A DNA stretch of 64,000 bases from Candidatus Nanohaloarchaea archaeon (GCA_014297435.1 JACOQA010000003.1:143460-207459), one strand, 5' to 3'; positions 461-62,649 are shown, counted from the first letter of the stretch. A program made the numbers and translations. The notes: generated from the letters alone by a model not told the origin.

Positions 461-478
461 TGTTACTATGTAATAACA
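461..478. promoter_or_regulatory. Palindromic operator candidate TGTTAC-TATGTA-ATAACA
   Basis: Lies between the TATA-like ATTTAAT (454-460) and ATG 483; the same motif precedes six other orphan genes. Confidence 0.6.
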
Positions 479-482
479 AAGT

Positions 483-1259
483 ATGTCGTTATTTGTTCAA
501 AGGCAGCAACGCGGTATAGAAGCCGAGTTCGAGGATATTTTGCTAAATGACCCGCTCGGCCATGGAGCTGAATTGAACGAAGAGGCAATTGAGGATATAT
601 TCAGGGTCATAGAACTAGCAGACCGAGAGATCAATCACGGCTTCGCGGAAAGAGACTATATCTTTGATCATGGAAGAGCTGCCTTTGACTCCGATAAAGG
701 AGGCGACAAAATCTCTATATCAATGGCTACAGAGTTCAAGCCCTTCAGACTCTGCCACGAGCTGGGACACAGCGCATACCATTCAGAGATACGGGAAAAA
801 GTACCTGAATCTGACCCGGAGCCGATAAGAACTTCCTATTCCGAAGCATTCGCTGAACTTACTGCCTACCACCTCTTCGATCAGGTAGAAATGGACTACT
901 CTGAATCCATACCAGAAAGAAACCCTTACACAAATCCTGATCAGACAAGATTCTACGCCGAACTCGTAGAGGAAGATATACCTGACTGGAAGGAACACCA
1001 TGAGAACTCAGATCTTCAGGTTGACTTACAGCACCACTCCGCAAACCTAATTGGTAGGAAGATGAGTGAGAAGGGATTAAACCCGAATAATGCCCTAGAC
1101 TCAACACAACAGTTCTTCTCATTAGTGCGTCAAGGCCTCGAAGCAGTTGTGGAACACGGCACAGAGCTCTACAGACAGGGAGAGCTCGAACAGATCTACC
1201 CGCAGGGAAAAGAGAGATACGAGGAGAGACTGGACCAGATAATAGAAAACAACTTCTGA
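483..1259 (+). CDS. Orphan acidic protein with HExxH zinc-metallopeptidase-like motif
   Basis: 258-aa ORF; CHELGH followed by SEAFAE (gluzincin-like third ligand). Confidence 0.6.
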   Translation: MSLFVQRQQRGIEAEFEDILLNDPLGHGAELNEEAIEDIFRVIELADREINHGFAERDYIFDHGRAAFDSDKGGDKISISMATEFKPFRLCHELGHSAYHSEIREKVPESDPEPIRTSYSEAFAELTAYHLFDQVEMDYSESIPERNPYTNPDQTRFYAELVEEDIPDWKEHHENSDLQVDLQHHSANLIGRKMSEKGLNPNNALDSTQQFFSLVRQGLEAVVEHGTELYRQGELEQIYPQGKERYEERLDQIIENNF

Positions 1260-1314
1260 CCCTCCAAAAGAACTATCAAAAGACCGTAAAAAATACCGAG
1301 AAACAAATTTATTT

Positions 1315-2529
1315 ATGGAGAAAGTCTTCCCCAAGTATGGCGAGGCATCGCTGGCAGACATTCCCGGAACAGTACTCTCCCTCTTTAATATAGAATCAGA
1401 CCTAACCCGGTTAGACGAAGATATAGTTAATTCAGAGGAAGACTACGAAAACGTAGTAGTAATTCTGATCGACGGTCTTGGACTAAACCAGTTAGAGAAT
1501 TTTTCAAGAGGTTTTTTTGAAGAAGCTAAACAATCTGGAGAGCTTAAGGGGATTACTAGTGTATTTCCGTCAGCGACCCCAGCCACGCTTACCAGTATTA
1601 ACACCGGCAAAACACCTAAAGAACATGGTTTGCTTGGATGGGAGATGTACTACGAGGAGATAGACTCGAATATCTTTACACTACCTTTTCTGACAACAGA
1701 GGGCGAAAAACCTCAAGATGCATTCGAGGAAGTTGACCCGAAGATGCTTTTCGAAGGCGAACCTATCTACCCAAGGCTTGAACAGAATGATGTAAACTGT
1801 TTTTCAGTAACTAAAGAGGATATTGTAGACAGCGAGTACACTGAGATGGTCAAAAAGGGGTCGGAGATAGTGCCTTACCTGAACACTGCCGATATGGCGC
1901 TACAAATCAGGAGAACCCTGGAAGAAAATGAAGGTAAAAAGTACATCTATGCTTACACGTCCGATATTGATTCGATCTCCCATATGCGGGGTCCGAAGAC
2001 TGAGGATGAGCGCAATCAGCTGGAGATGATCTCTGAGACCCTTAACAGAAATCTGGTTGAGGAGATGGATGAGGAAACAGCCGAGGACACTCTCGTGTTA
2101 ATTACAGCCGATCACGGCCAGATCGAGCATGATGAAAAGGTGGATCTCTTCCAGTGGGATAATGTAGGTGAAAGCCTGAAGACGGATGACAACGGCGACT
2201 TGATAACTCCGACAGGTAACGGAGGTCGCTCCATCTTCCTACATGTGAAAGAGGAGAAGCTCGATGAACTGCACAGCTTTCTGAACGAAAAGCTTGATGC
2301 AGAGGTAATGAAGACAGAGACAGCTCTAGAAGAAGGATACTTCGGTGAAGGAGAACTAGCAGATAATTTCAAGGCAAGAGCCGGAGAGTTAGTCATAGTT
2401 TCAAACGACAACAAAATTCACTGGGGTGAGCCCTGGAACCTTGAAGACATCGGGGTTCATGGAGGACTACATCAGGAAGAGATGAAGATTCCGTTGCTGA
2501 AGTTTGAGTTATCCGATTTAAGGAGGTAG
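1315..2529 (+). CDS. Alkaline phosphatase superfamily protein (nucleotide pyrophosphatase/phosphodiesterase)
   Basis: LIDGLG, SVFPSAT, DSISH, TADHG and HGG motifs. Confidence 0.85.
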   Translation: MEKVFPKYGEASLADIPGTVLSLFNIESDLTRLDEDIVNSEEDYENVVVILIDGLGLNQLENFSRGFFEEAKQSGELKGITSVFPSATPATLTSINTGKTPKEHGLLGWEMYYEEIDSNIFTLPFLTTEGEKPQDAFEEVDPKMLFEGEPIYPRLEQNDVNCFSVTKEDIVDSEYTEMVKKGSEIVPYLNTADMALQIRRTLEENEGKKYIYAYTSDIDSISHMRGPKTEDERNQLEMISETLNRNLVEEMDEETAEDTLVLITADHGQIEHDEKVDLFQWDNVGESLKTDDNGDLITPTGNGGRSIFLHVKEEKLDELHSFLNEKLDAEVMKTETALEEGYFGEGELADNFKARAGELVIVSNDNKIHWGEPWNLEDIGVHGGLHQEEMKIPLLKFELSDLRR

Positions 2530-2586
2530 ATTTCAAAACCTAGAAATTGGGAAAAACTCAAAAATCGGCGTGAAAAACCTCTAAAT

Positions 2587-3189
2587 ATGAGAGATACCGT
2601 CAAGAAAGGCTACGAAGAAGGCGACTACGAAGGAGAGTATCGAGAGAACAGAGAGATAGTTGAAAAAGAAAAACAGCTGTTCAAGAAGCTTTCTGACAAC
2701 ATCAAAGGCGATAAAGTACTTGATCTGGGTTGCGGTACGGGCGTTCCTTTCGATCGTTACCTCGTTGACGAGGGCTTCGACTTGACAGGTATCGATATAT
2801 CAGAGAAACACATCAGAAAGGCAAGAGAAAACATACCTGAAGCCAAATTTCTTCAGGGAGACTTCTTTGATCAGGACTTCGGAGAGAACAGTTTCGATGC
2901 CGTAGTAAGTTTCTACGCTATCTTCCATATACCTAGAGAAGAACACCAGAAGCTTTTCGAAGAGGTGAGGCCCTGGTTGAAAGACGATGGAGCCCTACTT
3001 GTCACGATGGGTGCTGAAGAAATGGAGCAGCATAAAGAAGAAATAGGAGGAGGTGAACTTGTCTGGAGCTCCTACTCACGCGAGAAGAACAAAGAGCTAA
3101 TAGAAAAAGCCGGGTTCAATATTTTGGAAACGTACGTAGAGGATTGGCGCGAGGAAACACATCTATGGATACTTGCCGAGCCCAACTAG
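2587..3189 (+). CDS. Class I SAM-dependent methyltransferase
   Basis: VLDLGCGTG, GIDIS, FDAVVSFYAIFH. Confidence 0.9.
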   Translation: MRDTVKKGYEEGDYEGEYRENREIVEKEKQLFKKLSDNIKGDKVLDLGCGTGVPFDRYLVDEGFDLTGIDISEKHIRKARENIPEAKFLQGDFFDQDFGENSFDAVVSFYAIFHIPREEHQKLFEEVRPWLKDDGALLVTMGAEEMEQHKEEIGGGELVWSSYSREKNKELIEKAGFNILETYVEDWREETHLWILAEPN

Positions 3190-3827
3190 AAATCCTCACC
3201 ATCCATCTCCATCTCTATTCTTTCAATAGCTTGTTTATGCCTCTCTAAACGTTTCTCCGCCACTTTCTTAGTATAGTCAAAGTTAAGCTTCTTCATCTGT
3301 CCTCTATAGCGGTCAACTGCAGAGTCCCAGAAGTATTCTAGGCTATCATCAAAAGTTCTTTCGTGTTCGGCTGCGTAATGTATCTGCCGCCAGAGGTTGT
3401 TTACACCGAAGTTTGAAACCTTGTCAGCATCCTGCACAATTTTTCCTTCGACAGTTTGAGGTTCGGAGTGATGGTTCCTGATAATTCTTTGAATTTTCTT
3501 GAGCTGGTCTTCTGTAACAAAGTCAGAAACGTATTCCTCGATTATCTTGGCTCCTCTTTCATCGTGTCCTTCATGTCCTTCAAAAGGATCCATCTCACCG
3601 TCTTCAATATCCTCTTTTCTGCCGATATCATGGTAGAGAGCGGCGATCTCCAAAACGTTCTCATCTATCTCCTCACTTGTTTCGACGTTTTGTTTCAGTT
3701 TGTGTACGATCTCTAGAACCGTTTTAAGGTGTCTGTAACGGTAGTTCTTTCCCCCGGCTATCTCGGTATAGTTTGAGAACTCGTCTTTCAGCCTTGATTT
3801 AAGCTCTTCTTCGACCTCTTTCTCCAT
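3186..3827 (-). CDS. HD-domain phosphohydrolase
   Basis: H...ALYHDIG...H...HH...QDAD pattern. Confidence 0.85.
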   Translation of the reverse strand: MEKEVEEELKSRLKDEFSNYTEIAGGKNYRYRHLKTVLEIVHKLKQNVETSEEIDENVLEIAALYHDIGRKEDIEDGEMDPFEGHEGHDERGAKIIEEYVSDFVTEDQLKKIQRIIRNHHSEPQTVEGKIVQDADKVSNFGVNNLWRQIHYAAEHERTFDDSLEYFWDSAVDRYRGQMKKLNFDYTKKVAEKRLERHKQAIERIEMEMDGEDF

Positions 3828-3891
3828 AGAATAGTTATTGGAACAGAAAATCTTACAAGTTTGAGTTGAAAGTTAAAGGGGTAAAAGTAGT

Positions 3892-4004
3892 CTGGCAGCG
3901 TCCCGGAACTCCCGCCTGTAAGGCAGTACCGACCGGATCGCTGAGGGACTTTACTTCCGTGTTCGGGATGGGTACGGGTGTAACCCCCTCGCTCTGACCG
4001 CCAG
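3892..4004 (-). rRNA. rrf: 5S rRNA, stand-alone
   Basis: Reverse complement contains TTACACCCGTACCCATCCCGAACACGGAAGTAAAG; terminal helix CTGGCGG/CTGCCAG; TATA (TTTATAA) about 25 nt upstream. Confidence 0.95.
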
Positions 4005-4092
4005 TATCACAAATATCAGGTTTAACTCTTATAAACAGTGATGGCGTTTAAGTCACGAAACATTCAAGCCCTTCCTAAGGTAATCTTTGGTT

Positions 4093-4578
4093 ATGAGAAT
4101 TAGAACCGCGGATATCGAGGACAGAGAAATCTTGGCTCATGAGATGTGGATAGAACTTGCCGAGATGATGGAGCCTTACAGCGAAGCTAACGAGCTTAAG
4201 GAAGATCCTAAAGAGCTTGCTTTAAACGGATTCGAGAATGTTCTAGAAAGCGAAGATTACGAGACATTTCTAATCGAAAAAGACGGCAACGAAATAGGTT
4301 TCATGAACGTCAAGGTAGAGGAAAAAACCACTTTCAAGATGGATAAATGCTTGGACATAGTCGACCTTTTCATCAAAGAAGGTTTTCGTGGCGAGGGCTA
4401 CGGAACCAAGTTAGTTGAGAAAGCGGAAGAATACGCAGATAAAACCGGATGCGATTACATAACCGTTTCCGCCGAGTGGAAGAACAAGAAAGCACAGGAG
4501 TTCTACGAGAAGAAAGGTTTTAAGCAAAAGCAGGTTCAGTTCATCAAATTGAGGGATGAAAAATGGAGCAGGCGATAA
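4093..4578 (+). CDS. GNAT family N-acetyltransferase
   Basis: FRGEGYGTKL and AQEFYEKKGF motifs; ATG at 4093 preferred over TTG at 4087. Confidence 0.88.
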   Translation: MRIRTADIEDREILAHEMWIELAEMMEPYSEANELKEDPKELALNGFENVLESEDYETFLIEKDGNEIGFMNVKVEEKTTFKMDKCLDIVDLFIKEGFRGEGYGTKLVEKAEEYADKTGCDYITVSAEWKNKKAQEFYEKKGFKQKQVQFIKLRDEKWSRR

Positions 4579-5543
4579 AGGATAAGATTGAATCAGCTCT
4601 TGAAGAAAGTTTTGAGTGGACGAAAATTGAGAAAGGCTTAAACAGTGTTTACAGAATCTATTCCGGGAAAAAAAAGTTTATCGTGAAAGTTCATACTAAC
4701 GAAAACCTTGAATCCGAAAATTTCAAAGCCGAGCCACTCATTTACGATGCAATACAGGAAAAAACGGATGTTCCAAGCCCTAAAGTCATACATGAATCAC
4801 TTGATGACGAAGAGTTCAGCTTCTATGTCATGGAATTAATTGAAGGAGAGAATCCCGGACCAAGAAGAAAGAACTTGGAAATGGAAACCCTTGAAGACTT
4901 AATTTTCGAATACGGCAAGATTCTAGGGGAGATACATAGAGAAATAGGCTTCGAATCCTACGGAGAACTCGAAGGAAGTACGGACGGACCGACAGTCAGG
5001 GATAGTTCTGAGAACTGGAGGGATGAGCTCTCTGAAATATTCCATGTTTATAGGGATATTGTCGAAGACGAGTGGGATAACCCTCCGAAAATGGAAATAC
5101 CTGATAATTTGGGCTGTATACCTGAGAGACCTAAGCCCTCACTTATTCACGTAGACAACAGACTTGACAATCTTCTAGTCGAAGACAATCGGATAACCGG
5201 ATTTATTGACTGGAGTTTTACACGTACCGGTCATAACGAGTACGATCTCATACGGGCAGAATATCTGCTAATAGATTATGATCTAAGATTTCTTAGTGAG
5301 ACCAAAAAGGAAAGACTCAAAGAAAGCCTTTTCGGAGGGTATAGGGAGGAAATTGATCTGGATAAAGATTCTGGGTTCAAAGCAAGGAGACAGTTGTACC
5401 GGTATGCCCCGGTTTTCTGGCTGGCTGCAGGGTTTCAGAGCTGGGGTCAGGACCTAGAAAAAGATGCTTACCAGGAGATGCTCCAGTTGATTATTGAAAG
5501 CCTAAAGGAGGAAAAGCCAAAAAATCTTCCCTTCAACCAATAG
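4563..5543 (+). CDS. Aminoglycoside phosphotransferase/choline kinase-like protein
   Basis: FIVKV, LIHVDNRLDNLLV, GFIDW motifs. Confidence 0.85.
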   Translation: MEQAIKDKIESALEESFEWTKIEKGLNSVYRIYSGKKKFIVKVHTNENLESENFKAEPLIYDAIQEKTDVPSPKVIHESLDDEEFSFYVMELIEGENPGPRRKNLEMETLEDLIFEYGKILGEIHREIGFESYGELEGSTDGPTVRDSSENWRDELSEIFHVYRDIVEDEWDNPPKMEIPDNLGCIPERPKPSLIHVDNRLDNLLVEDNRITGFIDWSFTRTGHNEYDLIRAEYLLIDYDLRFLSETKKERLKESLFGGYREEIDLDKDSGFKARRQLYRYAPVFWLAAGFQSWGQDLEKDAYQEMLQLIIESLKEEKPKNLPFNQ

Positions 5544-5545
5544 TT

Positions 5546-5830
5546 ATGCCTATCACTCCTGAAAACCTTCCCCGCCACGAACTGATCGGACTTGAATGCG
5601 AAGTTGTAGAAGCAAAGGATGAGAACCTGATCGGATTGAAAGGCGAGGTTCTTGATGAGACTCAATCCCTACTAAGGATTGGTGATACGAAGGTCGAAAA
5701 GAAGATCTGCACTTTCGAATTCGAGCTTCCTTCAGGCGAAAAGGTCGAGCTGGACGGCAAACTGATTGATAAGAGACCTGAGGAACGTGTCGGGATGAAG
5801 CTTCCGGGCAAATGGAGTTACGTTGATTGA
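5546..5830 (+). CDS. rnp1: Ribonuclease P protein component 1 (Rpp29)
   Basis: ITPENLPRHELIGL...G.V.DET...RPEER; conserved position upstream of uS17. Confidence 0.95.
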   Translation: MPITPENLPRHELIGLECEVVEAKDENLIGLKGEVLDETQSLLRIGDTKVEKKICTFEFELPSGEKVELDGKLIDKRPEERVGMKLPGKWSYVD

Positions 5831-5849
5831 ACGAGCCTTTTTGAATTTT

Positions 5850-5867
5850 TGTTACTAACTGGTATGT
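5850..5867. promoter_or_regulatory. Operator candidate TGTTAC-TAACTG-GTATGT
   Basis: Directly abuts ATG 5868; matches the shared motif. Confidence 0.5.
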
Positions 5868-6155
5868 ATGGGAGAGGGGAACTACACTTCGATCGAAGAT
5901 TATTCTCAAGAAGGAGAGTTTGAGGTTGTGACTGCATTCAACCTTGTAAATGAATTTGATATGAATCCTGAGCCAGGGAAGATGTGGGCTGTAGCCGATT
6001 ATCTTATGAAGTCACTTCAGGGAAAGGACGAGGCTGATTCTTATGACGAAGCTATCCTCAAGTCGGCGAGAAACACCAGTATTGATCGTGGAGACAACCA
6101 ACTGGACCTAGCTTACGATACTATCGAGGAGCTTGGAAAGCTTTACCTCGACTAA
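5868..6155 (+). CDS. Orphan acidic hypothetical protein
   Basis: 95-aa ORF with its own upstream motif and a T-rich terminator. Confidence 0.7.
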   Translation: MGEGNYTSIEDYSQEGEFEVVTAFNLVNEFDMNPEPGKMWAVADYLMKSLQGKDEADSYDEAILKSARNTSIDRGDNQLDLAYDTIEELGKLYLD

Positions 6156-6190
6156 ACCCCTTTTTAAAACTTTAGTTCTATTGTTGGGAT

Positions 6191-6320
6191 AGCCGCTTGG
6201 AGTCGTGAATTGACGAAAGCCTATTGTCCGGGTTTTCAGATTGGAGCGATACTCCGGGAGCAGCGAGAGAAAAACCTCGTGTAGAACGTACAGTTTTTCC
6301 CGGGTAACTTACCAGTGGTT
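6191..6320 (+). ncRNA. Candidate structured non-coding RNA of unknown family
   Basis: TATA at 6161-6168; ends pair (AGCCGC-T-TGG / CCA-GTGGTT); 9-bp helix 6224-6232/6299-6307; three hairpins; second TATA at 6323-6330 for uS17. Confidence 0.55.
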
Positions 6321-6369
6321 TACTTAAAAAGTTTACAATCGAACGAGACTACATCAGGGCTAAAGAACC

Positions 6370-6651
6370 ATGACAGAATCAATTGAAACCGAATACCCCG
6401 TTAGGGGAGGAACTTTCGTTGGGACGGTAGAGTCCACGAAGATGCAGAAATCCGCAACAGTAAGATGGGAGTACTCTGAGAAGGTTCCCAAGTACGAGAG
6501 GTACGAGAGAAGAAACACCAAGATAACGGTTCACGTGCCCGAAGACGTAGAGATCGAGGAAGGCGACGAAGTCAAAGTAGGAGAAACGAAGCCTATCTCG
6601 AAGACTAAAAGCCATGTTATAATCGAAAAAGTAGAAGACGGTGAAGAGTAA
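6370..6651 (+). CDS. rps17p: 30S ribosomal protein uS17
   Basis: VRG..F.GTV.S.KMQKS...KYERYERR..KI.VH...GETKPISKTK. Confidence 0.97.
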   Translation: MTESIETEYPVRGGTFVGTVESTKMQKSATVRWEYSEKVPKYERYERRNTKITVHVPEDVEIEEGDEVKVGETKPISKTKSHVIIEKVEDGEE

Positions 6652-7050
6652 ATGAAGCCGATCGGATCCAACATAACAAGAACACTGGATATCGGCGCAG
6701 AACTTACATGCGCAGATAACTCCGGAGCAAAGAAGCTAGAAATCATCGGAGTCAAGGCAAGACAGGGACGACGTTCCCGAAGGAACTCTGCAGGAATCGG
6801 AGACAAAGTAATGGTAAAGATCCTGAAGGGAGACCAGGAAGTCAAGAACCAGGTCTTCGAAGCAGTGATCGTCAGACAGGCAAAGGAATTCCAGAGACCT
6901 AACGGACTAAGAGTAGAGTTTGAAGACAACGCAGCAGTACTAGTGGAAGACACAGGACTTCCAAAAGGATCGGTTACAAGAGGACCTATCGCGAAAGAAG
7001 TCGTCGAAAGATACAGCCCGATCGGAAAGATCGCATCACAGGTGGTGTAA
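6652..7050 (+). CDS. rpl14p: 50S ribosomal protein uL14
   Basis: CADNSGAK...FEDNAAVLV...GPIAKE. Confidence 0.98.
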   Translation: MKPIGSNITRTLDIGAELTCADNSGAKKLEIIGVKARQGRRSRRNSAGIGDKVMVKILKGDQEVKNQVFEAVIVRQAKEFQRPNGLRVEFEDNAAVLVEDTGLPKGSVTRGPIAKEVVERYSPIGKIASQVV

Positions 7051-7053
7051 AAA

Positions 7054-7788: not shown

Positions 7789-7794
7789 TTTCAA

Positions 7795-8454: not shown

Positions 8455-8457
8455 AAA

Positions 8458-10910: not shown

Positions 10911-10916
10911 TTACAA

Positions 10917-20231: not shown

Positions 20232-20780
20232 TTAGTACAAGCCTCCCTGTAGACTTGATTCTACGGTTTCCTCCAACCGATTGTAAGCATTTTCATCTAC
20301 AGGATGTTCCTTAGGATCCAGACCCCGTGAAATAGGAAGGAAAATCTGTTCAACTACGTTTTTGGCGGCATTTTCAGCTTCCTCGACTTTTTCTACAGCT
20401 TGCTCTACCTCTTCAACCCTGCGCATATCACCTAGTTCCGCCATCAAACATTTGGTCTGGACTACAGACATGTTTTCAGGCTCTCCGAGAGCAGAGTAGG
20501 CTTCTCCAACCGGAATACCGGATTCTGTTAAATAATTCTTTTGATCTAGCTCGTCCTGAAGGTTCTCATATGCATCAACTGCCTTCCCCAAATTCTGATC
20601 CGAGTAATCTCCTTCATTTATGCCATATGGAAGATCTTCTAGCTCTCCTACCATCGATCTCAAGCTCTCAGCTTTATGCTGGTTCAGAGGTTCAAGTTCG
20701 TCAATAGCAGTATATAGATTGTCTATTGCGGCTTCTGCACCGGTTTTGGTATAACCCGGAAGGGCGATCATTGAGCTCAC
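20232..20780 (-). CDS. Orphan acidic helical protein
   Basis: 182-aa ORF with the shared upstream palindrome. Confidence 0.7.
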   Translation of the reverse strand: MSSMIALPGYTKTGAEAAIDNLYTAIDELEPLNQHKAESLRSMVGELEDLPYGINEGDYSDQNLGKAVDAYENLQDELDQKNYLTESGIPVGEAYSALGEPENMSVVQTKCLMAELGDMRRVEEVEQAVEKVEEAENAAKNVVEQIFLPISRGLDPKEHPVDENAYNRLEETVESSLQGGLY

Positions 20781-20789
20781 ACATTAGAT

Positions 20790-20807
20790 TGTTACTCTAG
20801 AGTTATA
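20790..20807. promoter_or_regulatory. Operator candidate TGTTAC-TCTAGA-GTTATA
   Basis: Overlaps the minus-strand TATA (TTTATAA), 9 nt from start 20780. Confidence 0.6.
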
Positions 20808-20829
20808 AACGTATTGTTTCTCCCTTCAA

Positions 20830-21293: not shown

Positions 21294-21638
21294 TCAGTTA
21301 GCGGCATCAGCTGTAACGTTTAACTCTTGCGAATTTTCAGGTATCTCAACATCTATACTGAAACGTCTTCTTTCACCCTGTTTCATGTTCGCAGTCTCAG
21401 AAAACTCGCCAAGCACCACCTCATTTGAGTCAAGGAACTGAGCAGTAACCTCAACCTCTCCAGCCGAACCGTTGTTGAGAACGGTTGCGGTAACTGTCGC
21501 ATCGTTCCCTATAAGGCTCTCTAAGGTTCCCTGTTCGAGACTAGAGCTTTCAACAATAGGATCTGGAACCGTTGCACCGCATCCAGCAGCCACGACAGGT
21601 AAAGCTAAAGCCAGTAAAACACCGATCTGCGTTTCCAT
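21294..21638 (-). CDS. Lipoprotein with FxLYD/Ig-like domain
   Basis: Lipobox VAAGC; V.N.G...V.VTAQFLD. Confidence 0.7.
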   Translation of the reverse strand: METQIGVLLALALPVVAAGCGATVPDPIVESSSLEQGTLESLIGNDATVTATVLNNGSAGEVEVTAQFLDSNEVVLGEFSETANMKQGERRRFSIDVEIPENSQELNVTADAAN

Positions 21639-21751
21639 ATCCTGTTAACAGAGCCTACATAAAAATTGATTATTCCACTAAATAACATATTCTCGAGAGG
21701 TAGAGAAAGCAGGTTTCTTAAGAGTTAGAACCACTGGTTTCTATAGAGTTC

Positions 21752-27482: not shown

Positions 27483-28043
27483 TTATTCTCCTACAGTCCA
27501 AGACCTTTCTCCTGTAACTTCTTCCCGTGCATCTTTAACACTCATTCCTTCTTCAACAAGTTCCATAATCTCTCGATGTTCTGGGTTGATGTCTATGTCC
27601 GGGCTTGGAAGTTCGATGCCGTGTTCTTCGTAAGCTGCTTTTCTCACATCAAGGTATCTTCTCTTGGCATCGTATGCATTTTCGGTATCAGGCCAGTCGT
27701 TTTCTGTAAAGTCTTCCATTACTTGTCTCTCTGGGTCTTCATCCCCTGCTGTTACTGGTCTTTGCCCAGCAAGGAACTCTGCTCCTGAGTCGTATCCATG
27801 TTCCTCAAGCAGTTCTCCGAACTCGTCAATTACATCGTGTTCTTGAAGCTGCTCACTAACTTCGTCCAAAGCTTCATCGAGTTCTTCGTAAACCTCTTTA
27901 GCCTTTTCGGCAGGTCTTTTGACATGTTCTTCATCAACTTCTCCTTCATCATACATCTCAAGACGGCTTTCAACTTCACCTGTATAGAACTCTAATTCAT
28001 CTGCTGTTTCGTCCAAGTATTCTTGTTCAACGAAGTCTGCCAT
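27483..28043 (-). CDS. Orphan acidic protein
   Basis: 186-aa ORF with the shared upstream palindrome. Confidence 0.75.
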   Translation of the reverse strand: MADFVEQEYLDETADELEFYTGEVESRLEMYDEGEVDEEHVKRPAEKAKEVYEELDEALDEVSEQLQEHDVIDEFGELLEEHGYDSGAEFLAGQRPVTAGDEDPERQVMEDFTENDWPDTENAYDAKRRYLDVRKAAYEEHGIELPSPDIDINPEHREIMELVEEGMSVKDAREEVTGERSWTVGE

Positions 28044-28045
28044 AT

Positions 28046-28063
28046 TGTGACTTTAAAGTGGCA
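28046..28063. promoter_or_regulatory. Operator candidate TGTGAC-TTTAAA-GTGGCA
   Basis: 2 nt from ATG 28043; between it and the minus-strand TATA CTTAAAAG (28068-28075). Confidence 0.55.
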
Positions 28064-28406
28064 AAATCTTTTAAGTGCTTCCCTACGAAAGGGAGTTCTT
28101 CTGTAACTTTATAATGAAAACAGGAGAGAAAACACCTGTGAGGCTCTGAAAAGAGCTTTTTGGAGAATGATAATTATGTTAGAAGAATTAATCCAAAATA
28201 CAGAACGAGTTGTTTCTGAAAGCCAAAGTGGCTTGATCCTCATCAAAGCATTCTACTTGCTCGAAATAACTCATAAACTCTAATTTTAACCAAAAAATTT
28301 AAACGTTATCTTGAGGTGGCAACATAAACGGATCTTGGAGTCAATTCTCCTAGCTCAACAGCTAGAGTAACTCATTTGTATAAAGATTCCAAACCCGAAA
28401 TAGTTT

Positions 28407-30763: not shown

Positions 30764-30781
30764 TTGTTCTCTAGTGTAATT
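30764..30781. promoter_or_regulatory. Operator candidate TTGTTC-TCTAGT-GTAATT
   Basis: Between TATA TATTTAA (30755-30761) and ATG 30790. Confidence 0.45.
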
Positions 30782-54514: not shown

Positions 54515-54530
54515 CTGAACGATCGTTCAG
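54515..54530. promoter_or_regulatory. Perfect palindrome CTGAACGATCGTTCAG, putative TetR operator
   Basis: Adjacent to the RND operon TATA (54505-54512, minus strand); a related site precedes tetR. Confidence 0.65.
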
Positions 54531-54569
54531 CATCCCAAGTTTCTTACACATCCAATATTAGTAAGTCGT

Positions 54570-55568: not shown

Positions 55569-55611
55569 AGTTTTTAAACTGGGAATTTAAACAGGTAGAC
55601 AGGTTATAGTC

Positions 55612-56289: not shown

Positions 56290-57436
56290 GAAGATGTTGA
56301 AGGAGGAGTGGCGTATGCATTCCAAGCTCTTCTCGGGAAGATCCTTCGCTGCTTTCCCGCTGATAATACTGGCTATATCGTTTTCAGCTTCTTACATACT
56401 AACTAACTTTTCTAGCCTAGGGATAGGAAGCCTAAACTGGTCTATCGGAGTTTTAGGAGTCTTTCTCGGGCTCTCTGTAGTTTCAATAGGTTTCTCATCA
56501 CGTGACGCCTTGAAAAATGTTCTCGGACCCGTGAACTTTCTTGTCTACTCTTCCAGAACTCTTCCGGTGAGCGAAAAACGTTTGCTAGCATCATTTCTGT
56601 TAAAAGATATTATTTACTACTTTTCGCTGTTCCTCGCACCGCTCTCAATAGGACTACTGCTGGGTTCAGGAATTCCCTCTCTCTATGGAGTGTTGCTAAT
56701 GCTTTTAGGTTTCCCTCTAGGTCTGTTCTTGGCAGTCTTGTTTACACGTTTCTCGCTAAAGCTGCCTATACCCGGAACCTCCTACAAGTCAAGAATTAAT
56801 CCGCTGGCGGAGAAGTCGGTTCTAGATGTTTCAAGGTCTTCAGGCGGATTATTGAAAATTGTGTTTTCGCTTGGTGTTTTAACCGGTTTTTACTGGTTTG
56901 TTGTATACTACTTTCCTCTTGCCGGACTCTTCCTGTCAAATCCGGTTTTATCTTTCAGCGTACTAATTGGAACAGTATCTCTTACGGTTTACAACTGGAT
57001 CAACCGTTTCGATTCGACAGAAGACTACATTTACCTGCCTTTGAACTCTCAAGACTTACTGAAAGCCAAGCAGGATACTTTCTTACTTGTCTCAATTCCT
57101 TTGACGACGATTTTCCTTCTTCTGCCTCTTCTTTATCACCCGACTAGTATTGAAATTGTTTTGCTTTCCTTAGCCTCCAGTTTCTGTCTGCAGGTATATA
57201 CTGTTGGAATGGCGTCTTACCTGACCGGCTTGAAGCCTAATTCGAGACTGTTCGACTCCAAGACCTTTGCCAAGTATATTTTGATGAATACGGGGGTCGC
57301 CCTTCCATTACTAGGTCTTTCAGTAGTTTACAGTCAGAGACTTACGTCACTGTTCCTTGTGGGACTTGGAGTTTCGGGTTTACTAGGCGTTTCTCTAGGT
57401 CGTCTGGCGGAGAGAAACCAGGAACGAACTAATTAA
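56279..57436 (+). CDS. ABC transporter permease (putative)
   Basis: Multi-TM protein coupled to the ATPase gene; KEEWRMHS..F.GR.F..FP. Confidence 0.75.
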   Translation: MITKKMLKEEWRMHSKLFSGRSFAAFPLIILAISFSASYILTNFSSLGIGSLNWSIGVLGVFLGLSVVSIGFSSRDALKNVLGPVNFLVYSSRTLPVSEKRLLASFLLKDIIYYFSLFLAPLSIGLLLGSGIPSLYGVLLMLLGFPLGLFLAVLFTRFSLKLPIPGTSYKSRINPLAEKSVLDVSRSSGGLLKIVFSLGVLTGFYWFVVYYFPLAGLFLSNPVLSFSVLIGTVSLTVYNWINRFDSTEDYIYLPLNSQDLLKAKQDTFLLVSIPLTTIFLLLPLLYHPTSIEIVLLSLASSFCLQVYTVGMASYLTGLKPNSRLFDSKTFAKYILMNTGVALPLLGLSVVYSQRLTSLFLVGLGVSGLLGVSLGRLAERNQERTN

Positions 57437-57441
57437 AAATT

Positions 57442-57455
57442 TGAACACGCATTCA
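57442..57455. promoter_or_regulatory. TGAAC-ACGC-ATTCA, putative TetR autoregulatory site
   Basis: Same half-sites and spacing as 54516-54529; between TATA and tetR ATG. Confidence 0.55.
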
Positions 57456-57463
57456 GTTACTTT

Positions 57464-58009
57464 ATGGGGCGGGAAGATTCGAAGCGACAGATAATGGACG
57501 CTACTTATAGAGCCCTGTGTAAACATGGTTACAGCGATCTTTCTATACAGCGGATTGCCGACGAGTTCGAGAAAGGAAAGTCTCTCATATACTACCATTA
57601 TAATGACAAGCAAGACCTGATGAACTCTTTCCTCGACCACATGATGGAGAGAATGGAGGAAGAAGACATGTTAAAAACCAGCAGATCAGCTGAAGAACAG
57701 TTTGACAGCTTATTAGACAAAACATTGGCGATAGAAGACGAGGAGATGTGGGAGTTCCGAAAAGCTCTAATGGAGATAGAGGCTCAAACACCTCACAACA
57801 AGGAATTAGCCGAGCGATTCAGGAAGATAGACAGAGTAGTAAAAGACAAGTTTGAGGAAGTACTAGCGGAAATGGATATTGAACGTCCGGAGGCAAAAGC
57901 GGAACTACTGATTTCAACTATCGATGGAATCATCAGCCGTAAAATGGGTCATGGAACTCCTAAAGACCTGGAAAAGATAAAGGAAGATATCAAGCAGACC
58001 TTCACCTGA
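57464..58009 (+). CDS. TetR/AcrR family regulator
   Basis: IMDATYRALCKHGYSDLSIQRIADE..K.KSLIYYHY..K. Confidence 0.93.
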   Translation: MGREDSKRQIMDATYRALCKHGYSDLSIQRIADEFEKGKSLIYYHYNDKQDLMNSFLDHMMERMEEEDMLKTSRSAEEQFDSLLDKTLAIEDEEMWEFRKALMEIEAQTPHNKELAERFRKIDRVVKDKFEEVLAEMDIERPEAKAELLISTIDGIISRKMGHGTPKDLEKIKEDIKQTFT

Positions 58010-58050
58010 GTACCTCTCTAACTTAAACAAAGAAAGCTCAACTTTTACTC

Positions 58051-58302
58051 ATGAGGAAACTCTTTTTCGCCGCAGCAAGTTTATTTTCAGTTTCCAACGC
58101 TTTTGCACATTCAGGATCTCACGGAGCCCAGAAAGCTGTAGAACAAACAGAGTGCTTAGGAGATTCTATCTGCCGCTCCGCAGTTGATGTGATGGGTTAC
58201 GATCTCTTCGGAACAGGTTGGTGGGGAATGATTATAGGGTTAATAGGTTGGAGCATTGTTCTTCTAACGCTTCTATATGCCTGGAAATTGTTTCAAGACT
58301 AG
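58051..58302 (+). CDS. Small exported/membrane protein
   Basis: Signal peptide AFAH..H; C-terminal TM. Confidence 0.65.
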   Translation: MRKLFFAAASLFSVSNAFAHSGSHGAQKAVEQTECLGDSICRSAVDVMGYDLFGTGWWGMIIGLIGWSIVLLTLLYAWKLFQD

Positions 58303-58337
58303 AGAATTAAAAACGGGGAGGAGAATATTTTAGCTAG

Positions 58338-59495
58338 ATGCATTTGTCTGACTGGGTTCAAAGGATCGATCTGGGGAAAGAAATCCAGGAAGTTTATCTA
58401 CACTCGTTCCTCTTCAAGCTAGGTATCAAACTTGTATCGATCTTTCTCCCTCTTTACATACTTGAGCTTGGATACAGTATAGAGATGGTTGTACTTTTCT
58501 TCATGACCTACTATGGAGGCTACCTATTTTTTAGCCTGATAAACGCCAAGATAGTTTCAAAAGTAGGTTACAAACATGCTTCTTTGCTTGCAAGCCCGTT
58601 CATACTCCTCTTCTACCTTGGACTTAGAAATCTATCAGGTAGCGGTCCATCACTCTACATAATGGCTCTTCTTGGAGGTTTTGCGTTCAATCTTTACTGG
58701 ACAGGCATGAACCCGGAGGTTGCAAGCAGCAGCCATAGTGAGGACCGTGAAAAAGAAACAGGCTTTTTCTTCTCAATGCCCTCTCTTGCCTCAATATTCT
58801 CACCTGTAGTTGGAGGTTTGATACTTGCCGTATTCGGATTCCCTACCTTGTTTCTTTTCACAGCGTCCATCGTTGGGTCGTCTTTTCTCCCGTTCTTATT
58901 CTCGGACGAACACAGAGACGGTATGGATTACAGCATACTAGAATTTATCTCTGAAGCAGAGCTAAGAGACTTCGCCACGTTTGCAGTAAAAGGAGCTAAC
59001 TCTATTGCCAAAAAGGTTCTTTGGCCTCTCTATCTGGCTGTAGTGCTTCAGGGATCGGTTAATATCGGCGGAGCCGGATCCTTTCTATCGCTGGGAAGTG
59101 CCTTCACCTCGGTCATGATAGGAAAACTGCTGACCGAAAGCAACAGAACCCTAGTTATTACAGGGGGAACTGCTGTGGCATCCCTATCATACCTCCTAAT
59201 GTCACTAGTAACAGAGCCGACTGCAGCATTCATGATTTCAGCCCTAAATGGCTTGAGCTACACTGCCATCTCTATCCCCATCTACAGCAAGGCGATGGAC
59301 CACTCTGAACAGAGCGACGTTATAGAGTACTTTGCGCTTAGAGAGATAGCATTATCTATAGGAAGAGTTTCTGCCTTGCTTATACTCCTTGGCGTTATTA
59401 GCTTTCTGCCTCAAGCAGCAGCGTTCAGATACGGGTTCGTATTCTTCGCCGCAGTTGTAATAATTATCGGATTTATGGGAAGCAGGATGGACTAG
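58338..59495 (+). CDS. MFS transporter
   Basis: About 12 TM segments; P.VGGLI motif. Confidence 0.85.
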   Translation: MHLSDWVQRIDLGKEIQEVYLHSFLFKLGIKLVSIFLPLYILELGYSIEMVVLFFMTYYGGYLFFSLINAKIVSKVGYKHASLLASPFILLFYLGLRNLSGSGPSLYIMALLGGFAFNLYWTGMNPEVASSSHSEDREKETGFFFSMPSLASIFSPVVGGLILAVFGFPTLFLFTASIVGSSFLPFLFSDEHRDGMDYSILEFISEAELRDFATFAVKGANSIAKKVLWPLYLAVVLQGSVNIGGAGSFLSLGSAFTSVMIGKLLTESNRTLVITGGTAVASLSYLLMSLVTEPTAAFMISALNGLSYTAISIPIYSKAMDHSEQSDVIEYFALREIALSIGRVSALLILLGVISFLPQAAAFRYGFVFFAAVVIIIGFMGSRMD

Positions 59496-59527
59496 GAGTG
59501 TTAAAGCTTCATCCCGACTGGTTTTCT

Positions 59528-59594
59528 AGATGATGAGGTACTGACATCGTCTGACCTCGACAAGAGGGATGATGACGGTAACACCCACTGATCT
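59528..59594 (+). ncRNA. Box C/D methylation guide sRNA
   Basis: C ATGATGA 59530-36, D' CTGA 59551-54, C' ATGATGA 59569-75, D CTGA 59588-91; terminal AGA/TCT; TATA-like TTAAAG upstream. Confidence 0.85.
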
Positions 59595-59670
59595 CAACGC
59601 TAATTAAAAACTTCCCATCCAATTCTTCGATAGAAGCCAGCAAAGTTTTTCTCAAACGATTATTTCGTTT

Positions 59671-59745
59671 GGTGGAGGTAGGTTAGCTGGTCTATACTCC
59701 GACCTTGTGGCGGTCGGGACGCGGGTTCGAATCCCGCCCTCCGCC
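59671..59745 (+). tRNA. tRNA-His(GTG) with encoded G-1
   Basis: Anticodon arm CGACC-TT-GTG-GC-GGTCG; G-1 pairs with C73. Confidence 0.95.
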
Positions 59746-59933
59746 CTATTACAGACTGATTTCCTCGGAAACTTCTTAGAAAAGATTCAAGAAATTCAAA
59801 CATATGTCTGACTGCTCTCAAAGACCATTTATTATCTAAGAGACTGAGACTGTCGTCAAGAATTGATGAGAAAACGATGATAGAATATACACAAAATATT
59901 CTAGTATCGGAAATCGTTTCAAGGATTCCTGAT

Positions 59934-60482
59934 CTATAGAAGTCCCTCCTCTGTTGCTTTTTCATAAACGCCCTCGGCATACTGGTCAACATCATCCTGT
60001 AGGCTCTCTAGCGCTCTTGGATCCAGCCTATCGTAATCGCTCTCTTCTCTATCCATCGCGAGAATTGGAGCATGTTCCGAACCCCAAAACTCCTCCATAT
60101 CATTTTCAGCGGCAAGAAACATTCCCTCATTTAGTAAATCATCTTCTAAGTTGCTTAAATATTTCTTAGTACGGTCTGCTAGAGATAGGGCTTCAACAGC
60201 CCCTCTTGTGCTCCTAAGAGCTGTTTCTTGCCGGTATTGCTGAGGAAGATCTTCCCCCATCAGCGCATAAGTTACTCCCGTTTCCCAAGTTTCTTGAGGA
60301 TTTAAACCTTCCTCATCAGAAATTCTTACCCTTGCTTTACGGTTTACCTCATCAGATACCTCATCTTGCCTTCTAATTTTTAAAGCCGCTATAACGTTTT
60401 CTGGAGCTATCCCTTCAGGAGTTATTTCCATCTCTTTTTCGTATTTAGGCGACCTTCTAAATTCGGTCCAGTCATTTGTCAT
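59934..60482 (-). CDS. Orphan acidic protein
   Basis: 182-aa ORF with the shared upstream palindrome. Confidence 0.72.
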   Translation of the reverse strand: MTNDWTEFRRSPKYEKEMEITPEGIAPENVIAALKIRRQDEVSDEVNRKARVRISDEEGLNPQETWETGVTYALMGEDLPQQYRQETALRSTRGAVEALSLADRTKKYLSNLEDDLLNEGMFLAAENDMEEFWGSEHAPILAMDREESDYDRLDPRALESLQDDVDQYAEGVYEKATEEGLL

Positions 60483-60487
60483 AGCGT

Positions 60488-60505
60488 TACTACTCTATAG
60501 TAATC
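60488..60505. promoter_or_regulatory. Operator candidate TACTAC-TCTATA-GTAATC
   Basis: Between the minus-strand TATA (60508-60515) and ATG 60482. Confidence 0.5.
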
Positions 60506-60681
60506 TTCTTATACCTTTAATTTACTATCAGTCTATTTGGAAAATCCAAAAAGGGAAAAAACAAGTTACAACATCAAAGTAGACCGAACAGTTTCTTTGG
60601 AGGTGCGCCCTCCGCCCTCGCAATTTTGGTTTTTCAGAATAATTAGTTCTCTTTAATATCTTAATATCTGTTTGTTGTCAG

Positions 60682-60903
60682 TTACTGGCTGACAAAGTAG
60701 GCTCCAATAATGGCGCTGACCGTTGCGAGGACCACAGATAGAACAATAGCTAAAGCTCCACGTCTCTCATCCCCGTCCATGTACCCTTTCAAACCAGAAA
60801 TCAAACCTATAATACCGAAAACTATGGGAATCACTACTAGCGAAAGCCCTGCAAATATAAGACCTAGATTGGTGTATTTACGACCTTCTGGGCGCTCATC
60901 CAT
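60682..60903 (-). CDS. Small two-TM membrane protein (DUF4190-like)
   Basis: SL...PIVFG..GLI.G..G......RG..A. Confidence 0.7.
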   Translation of the reverse strand: MDERPEGRKYTNLGLIFAGLSLVVIPIVFGIIGLISGLKGYMDGDERRGALAIVLSVVLATVSAIIGAYFVSQ

Positions 60904-60960
60904 AATTTTTAACCGTAATTCCTCGTTTTTATATTATTAAGAGAGCCCGAACATCAAAAT

Positions 60961-61191
60961 TCACCTGTCTTTAGTTTTTAGATATGCCCCCAATATGCCT
61001 AACAAACCGAAGACAATCATGTGTCCTACTGCGAGCCTTAACCTTGCGGGACTGAAAGGCTCTCCCAAGGTGAGTATGCCTCCCCAGATAGGAAAATACT
61101 GGCTCAAAAGAAATCCGACAGCTATACCAATAATCCCAAACCGGATGTATACAGCTCTATCGGAGTCGTACCTGTTTTTTGGAACGAACAC
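60961..61191 (-). CDS. Small two-TM membrane protein
   Basis: Two hydrophobic helices; GTG start. Confidence 0.55.
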   Translation of the reverse strand: MFVPKNRYDSDRAVYIRFGIIGIAVGFLLSQYFPIWGGILTLGEPFSPARLRLAVGHMIVFGLLGILGAYLKTKDR

Positions 61192-61238
61192 ACATTATAC
61201 TAGATTATACAAGTTAAAACTCTCAGGCCAGATATGAT

Positions 61239-61595
61239 TCATTTAATATGGTTCAGGAATACTGTAAGTGTGAATAGCACTAATCCGAAATCTCTAACTG
61301 CTAAAGCATACATACCGATTCTTACGACCTGCAAGGCGATTATCGAAAGCCAGAAAACGGTTAGCCCGGCAAAGTACTTTGTCTTTCTACCATAAACAAG
61401 CCCTGCACCCAGAAACGCCTCAAACAACCCTCCAAGCAGAACAAGGTTCTCGGCTGATATAGGAACTAACTGCAATACCAACCTTGGTTCGTAACCTGTC
61501 CAGTACTCAAGGATAAACAGCTTCGAGAGACCGGCTACGATCATAAATACGCCTAGAAATTTTGCTGGCACATTCTCGGCTTCAATATCAAACAT
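61239..61595 (-). CDS. DoxX family membrane protein
   Basis: LG.F..AG.SK...G.FE..LG...VRD.GL. Confidence 0.8.
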   Translation of the reverse strand: MFDIEAENVPAKFLGVFMIVAGLSKLFILEYWTGYEPRLVLQLVPISAENLVLLGGLFEAFLGAGLVYGRKTKYFAGLTVFWLSIIALQVVRIGMYALAVRDFGLVLFTLTVFLNHIK

Positions 61596-61652
61596 TATTT
61601 TTGTAGTTGGACTCGGAAAGAGTTAAAACCCGCGGTAGACTATTTATCAGTT

Positions 61653-62093
61653 ATGAGAACTGAACTGTTTCTGTTGGCGGCGGTTATCGTGGCATCAGGA
61701 TGTATAGGTCAAAACACTTCTAACACCGATACTACCCCCAAACAGCCAGCAGAGACATCCAGTCCTACTAACATTTCCACAACCAATACTGTCGTTTACT
61801 ACACTGCTTCAGGTTTCCAGCCTCAGACAATAGATATCGAGAAAGGCGACACAGTTACCTGGGTAAACAACGCCTCGACTTCTATGTGGGTTGGTAGTGA
61901 CAGACACCCTACACACACCCAGTATTCGGGAACCAACACTAACGAGCACTGCCAGAGCGGCGATCAAAACCAGCCGGCTTTCGACCAGTGTTCTACAGGA
62001 GAACGTTTCAACTTCACGTTCGAGAAAGAAGGAGAATGGGGCTACCACAACCATAGAGCTGCAGGAGATACTGGAACAGTTGTAGTTAATTAG
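61653..62093 (+). CDS. Cupredoxin/plastocyanin-like lipoprotein
   Basis: Lipobox ASGC; GFQP..I.I.KGDTVTWVN...FTF.KEG.W.YH.H...G.V.V. Confidence 0.85.
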   Translation: MRTELFLLAAVIVASGCIGQNTSNTDTTPKQPAETSSPTNISTTNTVVYYTASGFQPQTIDIEKGDTVTWVNNASTSMWVGSDRHPTHTQYSGTNTNEHCQSGDQNQPAFDQCSTGERFNFTFEKEGEWGYHNHRAAGDTGTVVVN

Positions 62094-62096
62094 AAT

Positions 62097-62627
62097 CTAG
62101 ACCGGTTCAAGTTCTAGAGACCGAACCACTTCTTTCCAACCTCTTCTTTCAGAGTCCGAGACCTCTATTCTAACGCTGTATTCATTCTCTTCACTCGGGT
62201 CGGAAAAAATTCTATCGACTATTGATTTATTTGGGTAGCTTAAGCCTTCACCCCGAACTTCAAGACTGAAGTCTGAACCTCTATCCTCAACCGAAACAAC
62301 AGGATCCAAGTAATCGATCTCACCATGACGCCATTCCTTCTCCTTAGAGACCCAGATGTTGTCCGCAGAACAGCCATTAATCTGGCTCGACATTTTTGTG
62401 AGATGGTCGATTCCGACCCTGTAAACGTTGTTAAATGCGGCAAGCTGTTCCGGAGAACCATTATCTACGATTACAGAAAGATCTTCGACATCGTAGTGCA
62501 GCTCGTATACGTTCATACAGTCCTCTATTTCCCTACCTGCATCGACCATGAAGTCGACAAAACCTTTGACAGGTCTATCTGATCCAGGTAAATCGGTTCT
62601 GTAGGACTGCTCCATATTGTAAGACAT
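62097..62627 (-). CDS. Orphan acidic protein
   Basis: 176-aa ORF with the shared upstream palindrome. Confidence 0.72.
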   Translation of the reverse strand: MSYNMEQSYRTDLPGSDRPVKGFVDFMVDAGREIEDCMNVYELHYDVEDLSVIVDNGSPEQLAAFNNVYRVGIDHLTKMSSQINGCSADNIWVSKEKEWRHGEIDYLDPVVSVEDRGSDFSLEVRGEGLSYPNKSIVDRIFSDPSEENEYSVRIEVSDSERRGWKEVVRSLELEPV

Positions 62628-62631
62628 TTTA

Positions 62632-62649
62632 TGTTACCTTAGAACAACA
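62632..62649. promoter_or_regulatory. Operator candidate TGTTAC-CTTAGA-ACAACA
   Basis: 4 nt from ATG 62627, the same spacing as the site at 461. Confidence 0.6.

Follow-up and report, generated by a model that had tools for sequence, protein, structure and literature searches.

The DNA considered here is a stretch of 64,000 nucleotides (hereafter the window) from a Candidatus Nanohaloarchaea archaeon (GCA_014297435.1, JACOQA010000003.1:143460-207459), corresponding to C9:143460-207459 of the source genome, designated G000 (998,768 bp in 15 contigs, 44% G+C). An initial annotation of the window had drawn attention to an inverted repeat, TGTTAC-N6-GTAACA, at the starts of seven dispersed genes, and had proposed that it marks a regulon of orphan genes. 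The best copy in the genome is located near the left end of the window, between the TATA box and the ATG of the gene at 483-1259, and further copies precede genes starting at 20780 and 62627 (Table 1). Genome-wide, the element holds a constrained place and occurs in excess over chance; it sets apart a discrete class of promoters, is conserved across the phylum, and has orphan genes behind it.

Genomes of Nanohaloarchaeota are about 1 Mb in size, and to our knowledge nothing is known on gene control in this phylum. In G000 a simple dicodon open reading frame (ORF) caller yields 1127 genes with a coding density of 90%, leaving 10.4% of the DNA intergenic; approximately 4 of 10 sampled promoter-bearing genes have no Pfam family. 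The profile of promoter-bearing genes aligned by their starts reveals an A-rich B recognition element (BRE) at −34/−33 and a TATA signal at −30..−24. Given this distance between TATA and start codon, most transcripts should be leaderless, and positions −23..−1 would represent the interval between TATA box and transcript start.

Placement and anatomy of the element

Regarding the distance to the start codon, which the initial annotation had given as 0-9 nt, the tabulation of every ATG opening at least 60 codons gives a sharp peak where the dyad ends 4 nt before ATG. At this offset 9 sites have at most 2 mismatches, compared with 0-2 at each of 50 other offsets (13 vs 0-6 at up to 3 mismatches, and 37 vs 2-31 at up to 4). 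Across G000, 22 of the 32 sites with at most 2 mismatches are wholly intergenic. Thus, genome-wide placement is non-random, while the mere number of copies in the window does not exceed chance expectation (15 with up to 3 mismatches to TGTTAC-N6-GTAACA vs 19.1 ± 4.1 in shuffled sequence).

A weight matrix was derived from 9 genome sites at the 4-nt peak, chosen by rule. At 14 bits or more it reports 22 intergenic sites versus 4 coding or partly coding ones, and at 13 bits or more 36 intergenic strand-hits versus 4.2 (maximum 14) for column-shuffled matrices. The 20-mer TTGTTACT-N4-AGTAACAA, with up to 3 mismatches, is found 23 times in G000, and its reversed control 4 times. The many copies earlier expected genome-wide therefore amount to about 22-23 in roughly 1 Mb, nearly all of them intergenic. 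As control promoters, 100 random motif-free promoter-bearing genes were scored by the best match within −60..+10. Their median is about −2 bits and their maximum 10.4, alike for genes with and without a Pfam family, whereas members of the class have 14-22 bits. Since ordinary promoters are unlike the element, it marks a discrete promoter class, distinct from the general promoter.

The anatomy of the element was derived from 49 sites aligned on ATG (39 from relatives and 10 from G000), which were selected on the 12 dyad positions and ATG only. Mirror pairs also appear at positions that were not selected, namely T at −16 (37 of 49) with A at −11 (42), and A at −4 (45) with T at −23 (24). This symmetry outside the selection indicates an 8-N4-8 palindrome; in copies with the modal register, CAT-ATG comes next (C, A, and T at −3, −2, and −1 in 31, 32, and 32 sites, respectively). 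The four central bases are free, and spacer and flanks carry no information. The spacer had been described as tending toward TCTAGA, which is not confirmed: only its outer bases, the T and A of the first mirror pair, are constrained, and as they belong to the half-sites, the spacer palindrome is no feature. The six bases 5′ of the dyad form the TATA box (T at −28 in 36 of 49 sites, A at −25 in 39), the BRE is the usual A-rich one, and both are the same as in bulk promoters.

The element thus occupies approximately −23 to −4 of leaderless promoters, with the modal copy abutting the TATA box. The modal register, ending 4 nt before the start codon, is present in 10 of the 20 strong G000 sites. 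Off-register sites mostly keep a fixed TATA-to-start distance of 22 ± 1 nt and have the dyad shifted by about −5 to +3 nt; since the dyad slides against this distance, it is a separate element superimposed on a fixed core promoter. The start codon is further out at C1:216196, C1:251705, and C10:3146, which implies a short leader, and a few copies lie upstream of a TATA box, e.g., at C9:132448. The half-site cores are separated by about 11 bp, a spacing that fits a helix-turn-helix dimer contacting adjacent major grooves. Altogether, the offset peak, matrix, alignment, and control promoters uphold the notion of a palindromic, position-constrained element between TATA box and start codon.

All seven strings quoted by the initial annotation are indeed found in the window where it had placed them, but according to the matrix only three or four deserve to be kept: those at 461, 20790, and 62632 are strong, and the one at 28046 is moderate. 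As 2 of the 100 control promoters reach at least 9 bits within −60..+10, the marginal match at 60488 is indistinguishable from chance, and those at 5850 and 30764 are non-sites. The dyad at 20790 is displaced by 5 nt, and the TATA-to-start distance there is still about 22 nt.

Table 1. Copies of the element, their genes, and other matches in the window
Feature	Position	Strand	Characteristics
TATA box TTTAAT of gene 483-1259	455..460	+	Abuts dyad; TATA position in genome profile and 49-site alignment
Strong operator-like dyad TTGTTACT-atgt-AATAACAA	460..479	+	21.7 bits, best in genome; 1 mismatch to 20-mer; ends 4 nt 5′ of ATG
Target gene, 258 aa, strict orphan	483..1259	+	No Pfam family; HELGH; predicted zinc-metallopeptidase-like
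Rejected site, left half only	5850..5867	+	5.3 bits
Target gene, 182 aa, orphan	20232..20780	-	GTG start; no Pfam family; not found in 30 relatives
Strong dyad TTATAACT-ctag-AGTAACAA (gene orientation)	20789..20808	-	15.9 bits; 2 mismatches to 20-mer; left half overlaps TATA
TATA box TTTATAA of gene 20232-20780	20803..20809	-	Sequence and geometry
Weak site absent from the initial annotation	21670..21687	+	12.6 bits; intergenic; 31 nt 5′ of gene 21294-21638 (minus)
Possible target gene, 186 aa, no family	27483..28043	-	Sole Pfam match at noise level (E 0.0097)
Moderate dyad TTGCCACT-ttaa-AGTCACAA (gene orientation)	28045..28064	-	11.0 bits; 3 mismatches to 20-mer; 2 nt 5′ of ATG at 28043
Second weak site	28102..28119		11.6 bits; 56 nt upstream of the 28046 site
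Rejected site	30764..30781	+	−1.6 bits; 5 of 12 consensus positions mismatched
Marginal match	60488..60505	-	9.6 bits
Target gene, 176 aa, no family	62097..62627	-	Orthologue in G001 only (62% identity; none in 29 others)
Strong dyad TGTTGT-tctaag-GTAACA (gene orientation)	62632..62649	-	15.8 bits; ends 4 nt 5′ of ATG at 62627

Elsewhere in G000, three dyads are found inside 1 kb (C8:217137, 218025, and 218121). Two full TATA-plus-dyad modules lie 96 nt apart and point in the same direction, toward gene C8:217156-218022, and the third dyad of this cluster is just past the stop of that gene. Other inverted repeats also occur in G000 promoters: within 50 nt upstream of starts, GTTCG-N8-CGAAC is present in 4 promoters (0.1 expected) and TTAAA-N6-TTTAA in 5 (0.05 expected), each possibly another operator, and a perfect 7-N4-7 inverted repeat with its inner left base at −52 from the start is present in 3 (0.1 expected).

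Conservation in the phylum and the genes behind the element

The dyad followed by N4-ATG, with at most 2 mismatches, is detected in 28 of 31 relatives and, phylum-wide, in 64 of the 70 genomes scanned, which confirms its conservation in other Nanohaloarchaeota; reversed-pattern controls in the 70-genome scan are mostly zero. These 70 genomes belong to one order and five families, among which f4 is the weakest for the pattern. Two genomes that are blank in the strict search, G013 and G016, have 12-13 dyads versus 0-2 in controls, and the idea of using motif-less genomes as natural knock-outs was dropped because these two do carry the dyad. The exact extended pattern, with 18 fixed and 3 two-fold positions, has 13 loci among 185,579 species, compared with about 2 chance matches estimated in 596 Gb under uniform composition. 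Ten of the 13 are labelled Nanohaloarchaea, Nanohalarchaeota, Nanohalobium, or Nanoanaerosalina, the other 3 belong to archaeal metagenome-assembled genomes (MAGs), and viral contigs contain no exact match. A full-text literature search did not find the motif or the regulon, in line with the initial annotation, which knew of no such regulon in the literature.

The 40 sites fetched from relatives share the same architecture. Twelve of the 14 top-ranking G000 targets lack a Pfam match at 1e-5, versus 42 of 100 control genes (Fisher p 0.002; the control set comprises the first 100 of 150 promoter-bearing genes drawn); the exceptions are an ABC ATPase and one sub-threshold winged-helix match. Of the 32 ORFs that follow a site in relatives and reach at least 60 aa, 28 have no Pfam match at 1e-3 (p 4e-6), so the enrichment of the motif before family-less genes is seen in both sets. 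Only 5 of the 40 loci have any BLASTP match in G000. Two complete genomes supplied another 20 sites, 12 of them with a nearby ORF of at least 50 aa; none of these ORFs has a G000 homologue (0 of 12) or a Pfam match above the cut-off (0 of 12). Weaker sites precede an eRF1-like protein, a transglutaminase-like protein, and a family-2 glycosyltransferase.

When neighbouring genes are used as anchors, 34 of 60 foreign loci can be placed on G000, and for 13 of these 34 the anchor is within 2.5 kb of a G000 site, a modest excess over the 26% for all genes. A dyad-driven gene stands beside the orthologue of C1:186899-187891 in G001, G006, G012, G018, and G000, and beside C10:68068-69318 in G006, G016, and G000, while the slot of the perfect site at C10:137646 is bounded by the same pair of genes in G016. 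Between orthologous promoters the half-sites, deviations included, are preserved, whereas spacer and flanks drift, as in C12:21542 compared with G001; for the gene starting at 62627 in the window, TGTTGT-N6-GTGACA-N4-ATG is kept in G001, and spacer and flanks differ. As judged from these shared slots and kept half-sites, some of the orphans at least are positional orthologues whose sequences are no longer recognisably similar, although the site that controls them has been conserved.

The targets had been described as unrelated, unannotatable, and acidic. They are not paralogues, a possibility ruled out by the best pairwise BLASTP E-value of 0.04, and mostly have no Pfam family; the gene at 483-1259, however, has a HELGH motif and a predicted metallopeptidase-like fold and thus is not entirely beyond annotation. 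They are acidic as well, but so are all proteins of this genome (aspartate plus glutamate 21.4% in targets vs 19.3%). The G+C of the target genes equals that of the genome and their coding score is slightly above that of other genes, which rules out a foreign origin; the proteins exceed others a little in acidity and hydrophilicity and look native, soluble, and cytoplasmic. Signal peptides are absent from the products. Four top targets were not found in 30 relatives (483-1259, apart from one match with E 1.5e-4; 20232-20780; a 365-aa and a 157-aa protein), and a fifth was found in one congener only. Among 5.8 billion proteins, the 362-aa protein of C12:21542 has an orthologue in G001 only.

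The gene at 483-1259 finds only itself among 5.8 billion clustered proteins and one weak match (E 5e-4) among 1.84 billion representatives. Structural neighbours of its predicted model in the Atlas are zinc metallopeptidases, including ImmA/IrrE-type proteins, so its product is predicted to be zinc-metallopeptidase-like. The adjacent gene was found only in G002 (40% identity), with no informative site there. Window positions 1-3880, which contain 483-1259 and three more genes, have no DNA match in either congener, and the ribosomal-protein region from about 6370 matches the congeners at 67-91%; positions 1-3880 are a variable segment adjoining the 5S rRNA gene.

HExxH is found in 7 of 61 target proteins from G000 and relatives versus 25 of 1127 (2.2%) in the G000 proteome (p 8e-4), i.e., it is a modest theme among targets. 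The HExxH types vary (L094, L101, L105, L111, L112, L116, and window 483-1259; seven genomes, two of HExxHxxGxxH type). PADLOC reports for 56 target proteins only generic ATPase matches and one weak capP match, belonging to an HExxH target (E 0.009), and therefore targets as defence genes are not supported by known families. A single-sequence AlphaFold2 model of the perfect-site target L004 is uninformative (pLDDT 32.7), and the Atlas search with L007 returned no usable match.

Another conserved dyad-driven unit begins with a leaderless micro-ORF of 36-40 aa, always ended by TGA (L123:1971-2081, i.e., G000 C10:44808-44918, minus strand), whose dyad is among the best conserved (G000, G001, G006, and G018). 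It is followed by an ORF of 99-157 aa, with an ATGA overlap in two cases, which is dissimilar between genomes, even congeners; the third ORF of the operon is conserved (52% identity between G000 and G001). In addition, L051:8838-9812 (G000 C9) has a strong match to the 5-hmdU DNA kinase helical domain (228 bits), which hints at hypermodified thymidine in the genome or in a resident element.

A putative operator, its candidate reader, and alternative explanations

In our assessment, the palindrome TTGTTACT-N4-AGTAACAA is probably the operator of one dimeric regulator, conserved across the phylum and predicted to act as a repressor. A protein dimer would bind the 20-bp palindrome between TATA box and start codon and keep RNA polymerase off the promoter, TBP and TFB still being able to bind, and the target genes would respond together to this one regulator. 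There are about 10-25 such promoters per species, most of which drive soluble, acidic, fast-evolving proteins. A two-fold site just downstream of BRE/TATA, over the region of the polymerase, is the textbook arrangement of archaeal repressors. According to PMC4706686, TrmBL1 sites located directly downstream of BRE/TATA (21 of 28) cause repression by preventing recruitment of the polymerase, and in vitro all nine templates of this kind were repressed; PMC4158304 and PMC10817205 state this dependence on position for the TrmB family.

The leading candidate for the reader, put forward tentatively, is a TrmBL2-like protein of the TrmB family encoded at G000 C10:104443-105309. It is the only full-length TrmB-family protein in G000 (Pfam TrmB, 71.7 bits), its full-length PDB match is TrmBL2 (E 1.2e-13), and a protein of this family is present in 31 of 31 genomes; within family f1 its identity is 70-98%. 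Half-sites described for the TrmB family are TACT/AGTA, and the core of the present palindrome, TACT-N4-AGTA, resembles them. The TrmB gene itself has a related palindrome at a conserved position, 35-45 nt upstream of its TATA box. In f1 it has the form GTTTAC-N9-GTAAAC and precedes the near-invariant ggataaggTTTATAAct promoter of the TrmBL2-like gene; the G000 form is TATTAC-N9-ATAAAC (L161:2426-2446, i.e., G000 C10:105371-105391), and L162-L179 have it at the same place. It is probably an autoregulatory or activator site. Own-promoter forms with N6 spacing score 19.5 bits in G012, 19.1 in G030 and G026, and 12.8 in G028.

As for other regulators, G000 encodes about fifteen candidates, XRE-type proteins among them. 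An Lrp/AsnC homologue was rejected as a universal reader, being detected in 21 of 31 genomes at 1e-10 and not found in two complete motif-bearing ones. An autoregulated regulator was also sought in G000 and given up. The genome has two TFB paralogues as well (C10:94859-96070 and C1:971-1933), one of which, 403 aa long, has about 100 additional residues N-terminal of the zinc ribbon.

Several observations weigh against a plain operator or against the TrmB-family candidate. ACAT before ATG is conserved, with C at −3 in 31 of 49 sites versus 13% of bulk promoters; together with the sharp register, this is unusual for a plain operator and could reflect a tie to the initiation machinery. The palindrome upstream of the f1 TrmB gene is spaced N9, unlike the dyad. 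Sites of at least 9 bits lie upstream of 8 of 30 TrmB orthologues versus 2 of 14 Lrp orthologues, and the core test gives 11 of 30 versus 4 of 14, which leaves the TrmB lead statistically weak. Unlike in TrmB regulons, sugar and central-carbon genes are absent from the targets, apart from the one glycosyltransferase with a weaker site. TrmBL2 of Thermococcales is described, in PMC4158304, as a chromatin-like protein without sugar subdomain that binds both coding and intergenic DNA. Among approximately 25 upstream regions of G000 DNA-binding genes, none has a strong site in the core promoter. Methodologically, all statements on intergenic location and start codons depend on the dicodon ORF caller, and the matrix seed sites were chosen via the consensus of the initial annotation. 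Recovery of the dyad by unsupervised means did not succeed: among exact 5-mer inverted repeats, TGTTA-N8-TAACA occurs 3 times versus 0.0 and yet is not the top pair, mixture models, run 15 times each at K=6 and K=8, produced a dyad component once at either value, and a sequence-blind dyad-symmetry scan of G000 promoters has no peak. Methods this crude are not suited to a class with so few members and such imperfect copies.

Among the rival explanations, it is considered unlikely that the element defines a special core-promoter class, read by the initiation machinery (e.g., the second TFB) and setting promoter strength or factor choice rather than repression. The single exact register of half of the strong sites, ACAT at the predicted start, and the presence of two TFB genes, one of them extended N-terminally by about 100 aa, would all suit this explanation. 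However, two-fold symmetry would be unexpected in a site read by an asymmetric initiation complex, the dyad shifts by −5 to +3 nt against the fixed TATA-to-start distance, and copies such as C9:132448 lie upstream of TATA; moreover, BRE and TATA are those of bulk promoters, and most promoters do not have the element, as demonstrated by the low scores of the 100 controls. A mobile or shuffling promoter cassette, comparable to phage PeSL cassettes or putative mobile promoters, which would exchange orphan genes by recombination with regulation being secondary, seems very improbable. Such cassettes are known from T4-type phages, where promoter-early-stem-loops (PeSLs) flank ORFans and drive modular shuffling, according to the portion of PMC2839356 that deals with them, and the conserved promoter module before hypervariable orphans resembles them, as does the micro-ORF operon, in which the second gene differs between congeners and the flanks are conserved. 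Against this, only about 16-20 positions are constrained, with no long near-identical repeat units, and a second dyad follows within 200 nt of the stop in 1 of 20 targets (vs 1.8% of 1100 other genes). The targets are dispersed single genes with genome-like G+C and slightly higher coding score, several loci are syntenic across genera, and viral contigs have no exact match.

An inverted repeat with arms of 6-8 bp might also act by structure, as a DNA hairpin or cruciform or as an RNA stem, instead of through sequence-specific protein binding, but the chance of this appears remote. Self-complementarity is not enriched at the dyad position (at least 6 of 7 pairs in 3 promoters vs 2.2 in shuffled ones), and copies follow the consensus, which is kept phylum-wide, and not their own opposite arm; consensus matching without enriched self-complementarity argues for a protein that reads the sequence and against a hairpin. 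In addition, TATA at −29..−24 places the dyad upstream of the predicted transcript start. Finally, there is a negligible probability that the element arises by chance or from the composition of AT-rich intergenic DNA. Although the window count does not exceed that of shuffles and 2 of the 7 initial sites are non-matches, this explanation is already contradicted by the controls, namely the 4-nt positional peak, column-shuffled matrices, reversed patterns in 70 genomes, and the 13 loci among 185,579 species, of which ten are nanohaloarchaeal by name and three are archaeal MAGs.

If the element is an operator, it would provide the first phylum-wide cis-regulatory code for Nanohaloarchaeota, yielding a short list of about 10-25 likely co-controlled genes per genome and a named candidate regulator. 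The pattern is unusual in that the control site and its slot are kept phylum-deep, while the proteins diverge beyond recognition even within a genus. A kept site with diverging proteins is the signature expected of an arms race or host adaptation, which makes these orphans the first worth studying. A further suggestion, speculative and rather unlikely, is that one regulator-operator pair might be a master switch for species-private, fast-evolving cytoplasmic proteins, several of them HExxH protease-like. These would be host-interaction or conflict factors, derepressed when the cell meets its host, the kind of programme that the initial annotation had raised, and perhaps transferred to that host via cytoplasmic bridges; protein exchange through such bridges is proposed for a cultivated relative in the pertinent part of PMC11001535. 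If this were true, the operator would be a sequence tag for symbiosis genes in any genome of the phylum.

Comparison with known systems

MDR1, LrpA, Phr, and NrpR are archaeal repressors that bind between TATA box and transcript start, and their regulons are small and functionally coherent. The dimer site predicted here likewise overlaps the region that the polymerase must occupy; unlike those regulons, about 20 unrelated lineage-specific genes per genome are involved. In Deinococcus, the radiation/desiccation response motif (RDRM) of the DdrO-IrrE system is a palindrome at the start of leaderless, often lineage-specific genes of no assigned function. Similarities include the palindrome at leaderless starts, one HExxH target with ImmA/IrrE-type structural neighbours, and the XRE regulators encoded in the genome. 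In contrast to RDRM, the domain of life and the motif are different, and DNA-repair genes are not among the targets (none found in G000 by Pfam search).

In comparison with PeSL cassettes, as presented in the relevant part of PMC2839356, a short conserved promoter module before many small homologue-less genes is common to both. The element described here, however, belongs to a cellular genome with dispersed loci, has neither a terminator stem-loop partner nor a flanking second copy, and is conserved at functional positions only.

Regarding the TrmB-family operators of Euryarchaeota, the sites given in PMC4158304 are TACT-N3-AGTA for TrmB of P. furiosus and T. litoralis, TACT-N7-8-GAGTA for VNG1451C of Hbt. 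salinarum, and TATCAC-N5-GTGATA (the Thermococcales glycolytic motif, TGM, of TrmBL1/Tgr). The N4 spacing and the outer TTGT/ACAA of the present element match no described site, and the candidate, being TrmBL2-like with no recognisable sugar subdomain, differs from sugar-sensing TrmB proteins. Like TrmB-family operators, however, the element is an inverted repeat of about 18-20 bp, here with the core TACT-N4-AGTA, and is placed directly downstream of BRE/TATA, with a few copies upstream of TATA, the position that in this family corresponds to activation.

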